This document shows, piece by piece, positions 25,290 to 26,958 of a stretch of 29,412 nt of DNA. The notes beneath the pieces were generated by a model. It was given only the letters and a program-made list of their open reading frames with translations. It was not told the origin of the DNA and made no database searches. The translations under genes were made by a program, and so were the position numbers. Source of the DNA: a virus (lineage: Duplodnaviria; Heunggongvirae; Uroviricota; Caudoviricetes); the IMG/VR virus record IMGVR_UViG_2609459833_000001; one strand, given 5' to 3'. The first letter of the stretch is position 1; every line of letters starts with the position of its first letter.

Positions 25290-25873
25290 TGGCATTCAGA
25301 ATGAGTGAACAACCACGGACCATAAAAATTTATAATCTGCTGGCCGGAACTAATGAATTTATTGGTGAAGGTGACGCATATATTCCGCCTCATACAGGTC
25401 TGCCAGCAAACAGTACCGATATTGCACCACCAGATATTCCTGCTGGCTTTGTGGCTGTTTTCAACAGTGATGAGGCATCGTGGCATCTCGTTGAAGACCA
25501 TCGGGGTAAAACGGTTTATGACGTAGCGTCAGGGGACGAGTTATTTATTTCTGAACTCGGTCCGTTACCGGAAAATGTTACCTGGTTATCGCCGGAAGGG
25601 GAGTTTCAGAAGTGGAACGGCACAGCCTGGGTGAAAGATGCAGAAGCAGAAAAACTGTTCCGGATCCGGGAGGCGGAAGAAACAAAAAACAGCCTGATGC
25701 AGGTAGCCAGTGAGCATATTGCGCCACTTCAGGATGCTGTAGATCTGGAAATCGCAACGGAGGAAGAAACCTCATTGCTGGAAGCCTGGAAAAAGTATCG
25801 GGTGTTGCTGAACCGTGTTGATACATCAACTGCACCTGATATTGAGTGGCCTACGAACCCTGTCAGGGAGTAA
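25289..25873 (+). CDS. tfa: Tail fibre assembly protein (chaperone) Tfa
   Basis: 194 aa [34 protein letters not shown]..., matches lambda/Rac Tfa; TAATG overlap with the stf stop. Confidence 0.9.
25716..25828 (+). repeat. Direct repeat copy 1 (tfa 3' coding segment), about 90% identical to 26765-26877
   Basis: Manual alignment: ATATTGCGCCACTTCAGGATGCTGTAGATCTGGAAATCGCAACGGAGGAAGAAA...GTTGATACATCA is repeated about 1.05 kb downstream with roughly 11 mismatches in 113 bp. Confidence 0.85.
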
Positions 25874-25886
25874 TCATTGGGATTAT

Positions 25887-25934
25887 GCCGCAGCACGTCT
25901 TAAGCAAGAACGTGCTGCGGTTGGATGCTATTTT
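25887..25934. terminator. Hairpin between convergent tfa (+) and methyltransferase (-) genes; T-tract on the plus side
   Basis: GCCGCAGCACG - 13-nt loop - CGTGCTGCGG (10-11 bp stem), followed on the plus strand by GCTATTTTTTCC. Confidence 0.6.
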
Positions 25935-26584
25935 TTCCCTGAAGCGGAAAACATTACTACAGTACCTTGAACCTTGGTTTTAACATTCTCGAAATGCTCT
26001 GAGAGTATATGTGTTAAGCCTTCTTCGGAATCTTTTGTGTTTGAAAAGATGCCTTTCTGATTGTAAATGCGCATCAGTTTTTGACCGAAGCTATTGTGCA
26101 CAACTCCATCGCCAAGAATTGTGGCTCCGTATAGAGTTCCATCGTCAGTTAAGGCCTGCGCCGCATTGCGTATTACACAGCTTTTTGTAGATATATTTCC
26201 AGGCAGGCAGTGAAGAAGGTAAAACATGGAAATGGAATCAAATTGACCATGTAACGCCGCGGGATAAGGTTCAAAAACATCATGGCTAATTTTATGTTTA
26301 ATTTTTGATTCCCCAGCCCTTGTAGATGCCGCGTTCAGGCTAGCTTCGTTCAAATCCATTAAAGATATCAGACTACTCTCAGGTACGTGAGTAAGGTAAA
26401 ACCCAGTTCCAACACCAATATCCAGATGGTTGTTACCTAAATGTTCCAGAAAGTGTGGAAGAAGGTGTTCCTTTGTAGGACATCCCCATGCAAGCCGATT
26501 TGATACTCCCAAAACCCACCAGTCATAAAGCTTTAGGGTAAGTGGTGTGTAAATTCTAGCCCCATCATCTGTGTTTTTTTTCAT
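25928..26584 (-). CDS. Class I SAM-dependent methyltransferase (small-molecule/protein type, not an obvious DNA methyltransferase)
   Basis: Glycine-rich motif I HLDIGVGTGFY, acidic residue in the following strand (SLMDLNEA), motif-II-like DSISMFYLLHCLP. AT-rich coding sequence unlike the phage structural genes. Start placed at the second ATG (MKKNTDDG...) because a TATAAT element abuts the first ATG (26596); the 26596 start remains possible. Confidence 0.7.
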   Translation of the reverse strand: MKKNTDDGARIYTPLTLKLYDWWVLGVSNRLAWGCPTKEHLLPHFLEHLGNNHLDIGVGTGFYLTHVPESSLISLMDLNEASLNAASTRAGESKIKHKISHDVFEPYPAALHGQFDSISMFYLLHCLPGNISTKSCVIRNAAQALTDDGTLYGATILGDGVVHNSFGQKLMRIYNQKGIFSNTKDSEEGLTHILSEHFENVKTKVQGTVVMFSASGKK

Positions 26585-26652
26585 TAATTTCACCATATTA
26601 TAGTTTTATTTGTGAATTAAATCAATTATGGCGATGAATTACAAGGGGTTAA

Positions 26653-26958
26653 ATGCTGCCGCAGCATAGCGATATTGAAATAGCCTGGTATGCTTCGATA
26701 CAGCAGGAGCCGAATGGCTGGAAGACCGTCACCACACAGTTCTACATCCAGGAATTCAGTGGGTATATTGCGCCACTGCAGGATGCTGTAGATCTGGAAA
26801 TCGCAACGGAGGAAGAAAGATCGTTGCTGGAGGCATGGAATAAATATCGGGTATTGTTGAATCGTGTTGATACATCAGTAGCTCTGGGTATGAAGCTGTT
26901 TGTAACTCATGTTACAGTAATGGCCATTACTATCTCGAAGGTGCAAAATGTATATTGA
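26653..26958 (+). pseudogene. Remnant of a second tail fibre assembly (tfa-like) gene: only the conserved C-terminal segment is recognisable
   Basis: 101-aa ORF whose centre ([37 protein letters not shown]) is a near-copy of Tfa residues ~145-181; its N- and C-terminal flanks do not resemble Tfa. Confidence 0.55.
26765..26877 (+). repeat. Direct repeat copy 2 (tfa 3' segment)
   Basis: See copy 1; same orientation. Confidence 0.85.

Follow-up and report, generated by a model that had tools for sequence, protein, structure and literature searches.

The direct repeat of the tfa 3′ end that brackets a methyltransferase gene in the phage DNA analyzed here (a stretch of 29,412 nt, hereafter the window) is most probably the scar of serial cassette replacement in the post-tail region, and not a working element. 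We put the probability of this reading at about 85%. The features concerned are the following, in window coordinates:

22209–25289, plus strand: stf, side tail fibre gene, 1026 aa (ORF; Pfam phage_tail_N, Phage_fiber_2 and Collar; RefSeq annotation in the near-identical locus H1)
25289–25873, plus strand: tfa, intact tail fibre assembly gene, 194 aa (Pfam Caudo_TAP, 2.7e-45, full profile 1–130 of 131)
25708–25828, plus strand: repeat copy 1, the part of tfa for the conserved C-terminal helical (trimerisation) region (earlier limits 25716–25828)
25888–25920, no strand assigned: conserved hairpin, probable terminator, directly 3′ of tfa (fold −28.5 kcal/mol, z = −4.5)
25922–26739, minus strand: methyltransferase module (moron), ~820 bp, left edge 25916/22, comprising CDS, promoter region and the start (~29 codons) of a small gene in divergent orientation
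26597–26625, minus strand: sigma-70 promoter-like site TTGATT-17-TATAAT (promoter scan, 10/12 matches)
26653–26958, plus strand: chimeric 101-aa ORF, with a phrog_3893 small-gene N-terminus, then the tfa stub, then 24 read-through codons
26740–26760, plus strand: right-junction zone, 21 nt, ~57% identical to each parent (small-gene continuation; tfa)
26761–26877, plus strand: repeat copy 2, a dead internal tfa stub, ~codons 141–180 of the 194-codon tfa
26878–27141, no strand assigned: AT-rich spacer of different origin, with no significant tfa homology
27142–28626, minus strand: secreted TAP-like alpha/beta hydrolase gene, the next cargo module (Pfam Abhydrolase_1 and Abhydrolase_4)

Limits and divergence of the two repeat copies

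The intact tfa gene displayed 93% nucleotide identity to lambda tfa and matched phrog_105 (5e-101). Its segment 25716–25828 recurs at 26765–26877 in the same orientation and reading frame; the two agree at 102 of 113 bases (90.3%), and their offset is 1049 nt throughout. The coordinates and the identity of ~90% given in the first-pass annotation were thus borne out, and in pairwise alignment the similarity was neither much shorter nor weaker than the 113 bp it had reported. The start at 26765 is a fair limit because unambiguous tfa sequence begins only at ~26758–26761, after an ambiguous zone at 26740–26760. The ungapped segment with the best score was 25708–25828 (108/121 identical), and a repeat search extended the pair to 25697–25828 and 26746–26877 (132 nt, 87%). 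The probability of at least 102 matches in 113 is 3e-48 per position pair, or ~3e-39 across all window pairs, and a chance origin of the match is negligible. The window contains no third copy. Copy 2 lacks the N-domain and the final ~15 codons of tfa; repeat identity falls away past 26877–26882, and the search for tfa homology past 26877 gave local alignments no better than shuffles, the sole remaining likeness being an in-register 15/24 match with the K-12-type stub.

The repeated Tfa segment corresponds to the conserved C-terminal trimerisation domain (PMC9608196) of a protein with modular structure (North et al. 2019, as summarised in PMC9608196), and in our alignment this tail was near-identical among lambda-type tfa alleles. 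The repeat persists, with copies still ~90% identical, because both encode the near-invariant C-terminal trimerisation helices of Tfa. Since this tail sequence is common to many phages, both copies passively offer homology at which the fibre cassette to the left, or the cargo to the right, can be exchanged.

Concerning the differences between the copies, the first ~50 nt of the repeat core are identical, and 10 of the 11 differences are concentrated in 25770–25813, which suggests a different allele or conversion tracts. Copy 2 carries the signature AGA TCG ... AAT AAA TAT CGG GTA TTG TTG AAT. At the codon level, 8 differences are synonymous and 2 non-synonymous (P = 3.7e-4 under random change), from which it seems reasonable to interpret that the stub came from a functional tfa. 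The same bias could also follow from the replacement of copy 1 by another functional allele after a duplication in situ. Among extant intact tfa genes, none with a copy-2-type tail, as expected of the donor allele or of a clean-excision product, was found (the best full-length match to a chimera of the copy-1 upstream part and the stub of phage 204576 was 94.2%), so the donor allele is unsampled; no phage tfa was closer than 87% to copy 2. It is quite unlikely that the tfa 3′ end was duplicated in place, with the methyltransferase landing between the copies and the downstream one undergoing neutral decay thereafter. Such an origin would suit copies that are direct and only 1049 nt apart, share register and frame, and begin with an identical part of the core, but the synonymous bias is not that of neutral decay, the differences are clustered, and 46 additional module nucleotides in phage Ayreon (see below) argue for separate junction events.

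The methyltransferase module

The DNA between the copies has a GC content of ~0.41 (25850–26750), compared with 0.47–0.50 in tfa and 0.51–0.56 in the 3′ half of stf. As first annotated, the methyltransferase gene lies there on the opposite strand (ORF 25928–26596). It is a ybcY-type class I SAM methyltransferase, whose CDS spans 25928–26584 and is annotated to 26596; the true start is probably the second ATG, at 26584 (218 aa), because the −10 element abuts the annotated ATG. In K-12, genomic SELEX gave for ybcY, at this same site, a constitutive, H-NS-associated RpoD promoter, TTGATT-17-TATAAC (PMC3946193). The sole terminator candidate for the gene is the shared hairpin, which is without a U-run on the minus strand.

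The protein matched phrog_2132 (218-aa profile) and, in Pfam, only the generic families Methyltransf_12/23/25/11; its sequence matches in the PDB were UbiG and JHAMT. The structural neighbours of its AF2 model (pLDDT 91) were PE N-methyltransferase, JHAMT, PfPMT, UbiG and natural-product methyltransferases, all of them generic class I neighbours by Foldseek (TM ~0.6), and no DNA methyltransferase appeared among the top 50. A DNA methyltransferase, either of a restriction-modification system or orphan, was discarded in view of the generic domains and of those top 50 structures, and the model predicts an enzyme of the small-molecule type, not a DNA-modifying one. A more specific function was likewise rejected, as NCBIfam matches were sub-threshold and the Foldseek neighbours generic, and so was a defence-system assignment of either the methyltransferase or the stub, for which PADLOC gave no credible match. 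In the literature on ybcY and tfaX, only promoter-mapping mentions were found, and no functional study.

The dN/dS of 0.11–0.20 indicates that the methyltransferase is under purifying selection, and its homologues are ordinary chromosomal genes in Enterobacter. It is probably a selected moron, putatively expressed in the lysogen. Of 5426 complete E. coli genomes, 3814 (~70%) contained the methyltransferase segment, 3433 had the right junction and 3119 had the left junction in full; the segment was also found in several phage genome records. The module can be considered of single origin and widely spread. Its partners include the window-type tfa, a Turner-type tfa with pin and ynaE, Nesevirus fibres, and the contexts of Ayreon and CT30. 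In the Nesevirus context, copy 1 too is reduced to a stub, which begins at 25754.

Junctions, stub and proposed origin

Phage lambda has a hairpin at the same place after tfa, with a different stem sequence, and its homology to the window ends at 25922. Base-level alignment placed the left junction at the 3′ foot of the hairpin, within the microhomology TGCGGT(T) at 25915–25922. Ayreon shares this left junction (25728–25963 contiguous), and C. freundii loci match 25916–26739 at 91.5%, with unrelated, non-tfa flanks. Both Ayreon and Citrobacter continue for 46 nt more of the module past 26739; Ayreon has no tfa stub, and in Citrobacter the small gene is intact (80 aa, phrog_3893, 7.6e-38). Because of these 46 nt and this intact small gene, the two flanks are to be seen as separate events. 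The transfer between Citrobacter and phage may have gone either way. In the Ayreon-type relatives examined (Ayreon and 2 of 38 flank-carrying E. coli genomes) the methyltransferase is deleted, the internal deletion being the same in those two genomes.

At the right end, six or seven bases at 26740–26746 are unlike both parental proxies. The ORF that spans this junction (26653–26958) matched phrog_2341 (4.6e-55) as a whole and phrog_3893 across residues 3–36, and BLASTP of its N-terminus against the Citrobacter 80-aa ORF gave 78% identity over residues 1–36. Residues 32–77 match only positions 76–121 of the 131 in Pfam Caudo_TAP (PF02413; 62.8 bits, cut-off 22.1), in agreement with the earlier description of a short ORF that keeps only the conserved C-terminal motif. 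With its phrog_3893 N-terminus and its read-through C-terminus, the ORF is not a full-length Tfa, and RefSeq labels it a pseudogene, 'missing N-terminus'. In phage 204576, copy 2 matches 25697–25922 and the stub runs on through the genuine tfa stop and hairpin; the stub was therefore once a complete tfa 3′ end. The changes differ by lineage: both K-12 and PhiR68_2 carry a TGA stop, 2G7b has lost 7 bp with a shift of frame, and the 3′ ends are of three kinds. Within copy 2, the sequences of K-12 and PhiR68_2 reveal a crossover.

These independent inactivations and alterations bear on whether the ORF could be a functional gene, which it probably is not. It is hardly credible that it supplies a free Tfa trimerisation domain that poisons the fibre assembly of superinfecting phages, or a partner of the methyltransferase. 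The ORF is open in the window and belongs to a recurrent PHROG family, an AAGGGG motif precedes its ATG, and its junction is present in 3433 genomes; moreover, tfaX of K-12 was reported to have a divergent RpoD-binding site (PMC3946193). However, the reported tfaX −10 overlaps the ATG, so that the transcript would be without a start codon, and there was no PADLOC match to add to the RefSeq pseudogene label. The more specific idea that in lysogens the stub ORF is a dominant-negative decoy against the fibre assembly of lambda-type superinfecting phages, with the methyltransferase co-selected, is similarly far-fetched; if true, it would partly explain the retention of the junction in E. coli genomes.

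The origin that we favour, serial cassette replacement, would comprise three steps. In the first, a module of at least ~870 bp would have been joined to the hairpin foot after tfa at the TGCGGT(T) microhomology, bringing along a SAM methyltransferase of the small-molecule type under a sigma-70 promoter of its own, together with a small phage gene in divergent orientation (phrog_3893); the junction is seen in the alignment, and the direction is our interpretation of it. In the second, a non-homologous join within the 21-nt patchy zone, also seen as a junction and interpreted as to mechanism, would have made one reading frame of the small gene, up to codon ~30, and another tfa, from ~codon 140 on; this tfa most likely belonged to a second lambdoid genome that lost its stf and 5′ tfa by replacement. 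The product would be a 5′-truncated tfa stub with stop codon and hairpin, a state still seen in phage 204576. In the third, apparent from the lineages compared, the stub decayed or was trimmed independently: in the window lineage its 3′ end was replaced after 26877–82 and the hydrolase brought in, in the K-12 lineage it acquired the TGA stop, a mosaic 3′ half and appY, and in phage 2G7b the 7-bp frameshift deletion. An intermediate with tfa, hairpin, intact methyltransferase and intact small gene was found in no phage.

An origin by homologous recombination through the tfa tail, which the first-pass annotation had proposed, by unequal crossover or by Campbell-type integration of a circle with tail and methyltransferase, is unlikely. 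The near-identity of the tail in lambda-type alleles, the crossover within copy 2 in K-12 and PhiR68_2, and the presence of the module with many different left-hand fibre cassettes would all suit it, and the 204576 form is formally A-B-A′, with arms of ~226 nt. However, the left module edge is at the hairpin foot, past the tfa stop and outside the homology, and the right edge joins the small gene to mid-tfa in the 57%/57% ambiguous 21-nt zone, so that both junctions are non-homologous. As the module edges are outside the homology, recombination can move an existing A-B-A′ unit, not create the first one. What holds of that proposal is a later exchange: homologous exchange in the conserved tail did take place afterwards, as the K-12 stub is mosaic with other downstream cargo and the module is linked to several tfa/fibre cassettes.

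The other origin then proposed, cargo inserted between two tandem tfa genes, fared no better. In its single-step form, an insertion of the methyltransferase between tandem tfa genes (or between a second stf-tfa pair) that deleted most of the downstream one, it is very unlikely. It is true that a second tfa gene existed, since copy 2 once had the full tfa 3′ end with stop and hairpin, and the synonymous bias speaks for its having been functional. But two intact tandem tfa genes were found in none of the relatives inspected, where second tfa copies, such as that of CT30, are inverted; the right junction truncates the small gene borne by the module itself as well as tfa; and Ayreon, with the same left junction followed by 46 nt more of module and no stub, indicates that the junctions were not formed together. 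So, of the first-pass interpretation, the recombination scar, the motif remnant and the direct repeat were supported, and both origins were not.

Prophage setting, known systems and significance

In relatives that lack the cargo, what comes after tfa is either the hairpin with the b region, as in lambda, or a Pin-type invertase with ynaE, as in PhiR42_1, where the recombinase lies just after tfa. The methyltransferase is absent after tfa in lambda, HK629/630 and ev099, and present in the PhiR26_1 group and 204576. Turner, PhiR68_2 and CT30 also carry pin; in Turner and PhiR68_2 the invertase and the methyltransferase are both present, and a 1.75-kb pin-ynaE segment is placed between 25851 and 25888. 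A third tfa-tail copy by the methyltransferase in these two phages was rejected, as the segment just sits in that interval.

Downstream of the stub, similarity to the window ends at 26882 in K-12 and PhiR68_2 and at 26877 in 204576. A terminator scan located a terminator-like hairpin at 27086–27121 on the minus strand, downstream of the hydrolase gene, which RefSeq annotates in H1 as a 494-aa CDS. Locus H1, 99.8% identical, adjoins ompT-envY-ybcH-nfrA; the window itself is ended by an IS element at 28708, before ompT. With the neighbourhood read from H1, the window can be interpreted as the late region of a lambdoid prophage that occupies the DLP12 (argU/ompT) site of E. coli.

The closest known arrangement is that of the K-12 cryptic prophage DLP12 (tfaD – ybcY pseudogene – tfaX – appY – ompT), with 97.9% identity over 25435–26882 (1448 nt; L002 7660–9105) and the same gene order, orientation, module junctions and, as seen via H1, chromosomal neighbourhood. 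DLP12 differs in being decayed, with everything upstream of mid-tfa deleted and ybcY a pseudogene, and in having appY in place of the hydrolase; its tfaX, unlike the stub of the window, is interrupted by the TGA stop, is mosaic in its 3′ half and shows tfa homology for another 25 nt. The arrangement is thus to be regarded as already known, annotated in K-12 as tfaD-ybcY-tfaX, and the window as its version from an intact phage.

Morons are known from lambdoid phages, and illegitimate recombination has reportedly been put forward as a model of phage mosaicism (Juhala/Hendrix et al. 2000). The present module resembles such morons: it adds a gene that lambda lacks at this position, with its own promoter, lower GC and an adjoining terminator hairpin, opposite to the late operon. 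Classic morons sit cleanly between genes, whereas in this locus a single junction has truncated two genes, with a fused stub as the remnant, which makes the scar unusually legible. Tail-fibre and tfa mosaicism is reported to proceed via conserved segments, by exchange between functional genes (Haggard-Ljungquist et al. 1992; Sandmeier 1994). The repeat is likewise a conserved C-terminal Tfa region across lambda-type alleles, with crossovers visible inside, but here one partner is a dead stub downstream of cargo. In P2-like phages, Z/fun and other cargo separate the tfa gene (G) from the tail gene that follows. The site immediately 3′ of tfa is similarly a recurrent cargo slot, although the phage type and the cargo are different and P2 has no flanking tfa stub.

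With the Gin/Pin/Cin/Hin invertible segments the window shares a second tfa-derived sequence near fibre genes, and relatives have the Pin-type recombinase just after tfa. The earlier view that the arrangement is direct and not of the Gin/Pin kind was nevertheless correct: the copies are direct, the window has no alternative fibre C-terminus and no crossover sites, and no invertase was found among the four ORFs scanned in 25289–28734 (tfa, methyltransferase, stub ORF and hydrolase). In a repeat search, no pair of inverted repeats had its arms at the two ends of the module, and none was found around the copies. A transposable element with target-site duplication was also rejected, as the repeat has 113–226 nt at 87–90%, the repeat search showed no terminal inverted repeats and the cargo is only the methyltransferase.

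These results carry little weight for biology at large; their use is as a worked example and in annotation hygiene. In engineered phages, cargo could be lost by way of the ~120-nt direct repeats, although the product of such a deletion, with the 5′ part of tfa joined downstream of copy 2, was found in 0 of the 5426 genomes. Concerning annotation, tfaX-like 'tail fibre assembly protein' ORFs (phrog_2341) would be three-part chimeric pseudogenes, and should be taken neither as chaperones nor as evidence of a second fibre system. As an example, the locus allows one to follow, base by base, how dead tfa stubs may mark earlier joins in the replacement of lambdoid post-tail cassettes.

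Gene map and the direct repeat

The window corresponds to the late part of a lambda-like prophage, and the genes around the repeat pair are listed here.

Genes of the window region (coordinates, strand, identity)
22209-25289, plus strand: stf (ORF map)
25289-25873, plus strand: tfa, with a full-length Caudo_TAP match
25928-26596, minus strand: class I SAM methyltransferase (ORF map and profile match)
26653-26958, plus strand: 101-aa ORF, of which only residues 32-77 match the Caudo_TAP profile (positions 76-121 of 131)
27142-28734, minus strand: TAP-like alpha/beta hydrolase (Abhydrolase_1/4, phrog_20134); the real CDS is probably 27142-28626

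The first-pass annotation had described a direct repeat of 113 bp at about 90% identity, with an opposite-strand methyltransferase gene between the copies and the second copy in a short ORF keeping only the conserved Tfa C-terminal motif. All of this was confirmed. In pairwise alignment, the similarity was neither shorter nor weaker than claimed: 25716-25828 matches 26765-26877 at 102 of 113 positions (90.3%), with a constant spacing of 1049 nt. Without gaps, the highest-scoring segment is 25708-25828 (108/121 identical), and a repeat search of the window extended the pair to 25697-25828 and 26746-26877 (132 nt, 87%). Both copies have the same orientation and reading frame, the chance probability of the match is about 3e-48 per position pair, and there is no third copy in the window.

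The repeated segment codes for the conserved C-terminal helical domain of Tfa, over which lambda-type tfa alleles are almost identical. Trimerisation is the role of this domain, and fibre binding that of the variable N-domain (PMC9608196, a summary of work on phage Mu Tfa). Over the core 37 codons, 8 of the 10 differing codons are synonymous (P = 3.7e-4 under random substitution), which argues that the divergence accumulated while both copies belonged to functional tfa genes. Ten of the 11 differing bases are grouped in 25770-25813, the approximately 40 nt before them being identical, and this clustering suggests allele mosaicism or gene conversion. The repeat pair gave no sign of activity: the product of a repeat-mediated deletion was found in 0 of 5426 complete E. 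coli genomes, and no intact tfa with a copy-2-type tail was found.

Other features of the region can be mentioned. An Ail/Lom-family outer-membrane protein gene (21551-22150, plus strand), another classic moron, has the position between J and stf that it has in lambda. The centre of stf (22550-23600) is GC-rich (about 0.6), with a strong A-over-T skew and degenerate 21-nt-periodic repeats coding for Ala/Ser/Thr-rich 'AAKTSETNA'-like units. A 45-aa ORF (25846-25983, plus strand; RefSeq hypothetical WP_001309429.1 in the H1 locus introduced below) is probably spurious, as it spans a mosaic junction, covering the tfa end, the hairpin described below and the antisense of the methyltransferase 3' end, and has no family match. 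The hydrolase, a secreted prophage cargo replaced by appY in K-12, matches the PADLOC candidate defence-associated family C3a206 (8.9e-56). An IS3-family transposase ORF with rve domains (28719-29375, minus strand) lies between the hydrolase and the ompT position of relatives, and similarity to a 99.8%-identical E. coli genome locus (H1) and to phage relatives ends at 28707.

The methyltransferase module and its junctions

The methyltransferase is a real gene, with dN/dS of 0.11-0.20 against homologues 65-90% identical in protein. Its AF2 model is confident (pLDDT 91) and is closest in structure to methyltransferases of small molecules and lipids (PE N-methyltransferase, JHAMT, phosphoethanolamine methyltransferase, UbiG and natural-product methyltransferases), with no DNA methyltransferase among the top 50; PADLOC gave no defence-system match. 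A sequence scan predicted a sigma-70-like promoter, TTGATT-17-TATAAT, at 26625-26597, a site listed in K-12 as the constitutive, H-NS-associated RpoD promoter of ybcY (PMC3946193). The annotated ATG at 26596 is probably a mis-annotation and the true start the ATG at 26584 (218 aa; GGTG motif upstream), since the -10 hexamer directly abuts the former, most homologues have a length of 218 aa, and residue 5 is where the PHROG profile begins.

On the left, lambda similarity runs from tfa as far as 25922 and then ends. A strong hairpin occupies 25888-25920 (-28.5 kcal/mol, z = -4.5) and recurs in lambda with another stem sequence. The junction reads ...GCTGCGGT/TGGATGC..., and a TGCGGT(T) microhomology is common to the hairpin foot and the Citrobacter flank. 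On the right, the unambiguous module ends at 26739 and clear tfa begins at about 26758-26761, the zone 26740-26760 having about 57% identity with each parent. The module is lower in GC (about 0.41). Citrobacter freundii loci, whose methyltransferase is 90% identical, match 25916-26739 at 91.5% with unrelated flanks. Two chromosomal homologues match over the gene and short flanks alone: an E. coli paralogue (T2SS/tannase/TetR context) and an Enterobacter hormaechei gene set in ordinary chromosome near the liv transporter.

In Citrobacter, the methyltransferase has on its right an intact divergent ORF of 80 aa (phrog_3893, 7.6e-38). This small gene is often found, in intact form, in the post-tail regions of HK225, mEp390, HK140 and of phages of Klebsiella, Erwinia and Cronobacter. 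Over its first 36 residues, the Citrobacter ORF shows 78% identity with the N-terminus of the 101-aa ORF in the window, which then continues into tfa; this argues that the window ORF is a three-part chimera of small-gene N-terminus, tfa stub and read-through. In one C. freundii locus (4307-5996) the module has a DinI gene on one side and, on the other, the small gene and then a UmuD-like ORF. Because HK225-type phages have a similar layout behind their tail genes, this locus may itself be a prophage remnant.

Order of events at the two flanks

Phage Ayreon has a left junction identical to that of the window (25728-25963 contiguous) and an internal methyltransferase deletion (25964-26622), and to the right of 26739 it runs 46 nt further, as in Citrobacter, without the tfa stub. 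These sequences argue that the two methyltransferase flanks were made by different events. The stub would have been added afterwards, in a non-homologous join that cut the small gene short. The first-pass reading of a recombination scar was right in kind, but neither route it offered, cargo insertion between two tandem tfa genes or acquisition by homologous recombination through the tfa tail, fits the origin, because both junctions are non-homologous and were formed independently of each other. Exchange by homology within the tfa tail came later, as a secondary process.

In phage 204576, the match of the stub to 25697-25922 continues, and its ORF has a genuine Tfa C-terminus followed by the hairpin; the stub appears to have started as a complete tfa 3' end truncated at 5'. 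The window shares with H1, ev243 and Turner a stub whose 3' end is replaced after 26877-82, the hydrolase following. K-12 and PhiR68_2 have a TGG-to-TGA stop in the stub, appY downstream, and a stub 3' half from another tfa allele, i.e. a crossover inside the stub; the 2G7b stub has a 7-bp frameshift deletion.

The copy-1 side is as plastic as the copy-2 side across relatives. Similarity begins at 25754 in the Nesevirus genomes 2G7b and ev243, which have other fibre genes, and there copy 1 is likewise only a stub. Turner and PhiR68_2 carry a 1.75-kb pin-ynaE segment between 25851 and 25888. The segment, a PinQ/PinR-type serine recombinase plus ynaE, is present in PhiR42_1 too. It fills precisely the space that separates tfa from the hairpin, and this spot, within a few bases of where the methyltransferase module joins, is another recurrent slot for cargo. 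In E. coli CT30, whose prophage adjoins prfC, a genuine inverted tfa/tfa' pair and part of a recombinase precede a stub of about 105 nt. Positions 1-5140 of that locus (stf, tfa, inverted tfa' and stf', truncated recombinase, then the stub and a methyltransferase-deleted relic) hold what is apparently an authentic invertible-type arrangement.

The K-12 counterpart and its spread

The order in H1 is tfa, methyltransferase, tfa pseudogene ('missing N-terminus'), hydrolase, ompT, envY, ybcH and nfrA. In K-12 the cryptic prophage DLP12 occupies this chromosomal position, with the annotation tfaD, ybcY (pseudogene), tfaX, appY and ompT. K-12 aligns with window 25435-26882 at 97.9%, and therefore the arrangement is already annotated in the reference E. 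coli genome, as the well-known tfaD-ybcY-tfaX. PHROGs families exist for the methyltransferase (phrog_2132) and the chimeric ORF (phrog_2341).

The segment 25289-27140 is present at full length in 1129 of the 5426 complete E. coli genomes, in phage records PhiR26_1, PhiR30_1 and PhiR29_1/2, and to 86% in phage 204576. Of these genomes, 3814 have the module, 3433 have its junction with the stub and 3119 have the complete tfa-hairpin-module junction; those without the full left junction mostly start at 25888, like Turner. These counts fit a history in which each junction arose once and then spread widely. The arrangement is an instance of lambdoid mosaicism and moron accretion, which are textbook processes (Hendrix and colleagues; Sandmeier; Haggard-Ljungquist).
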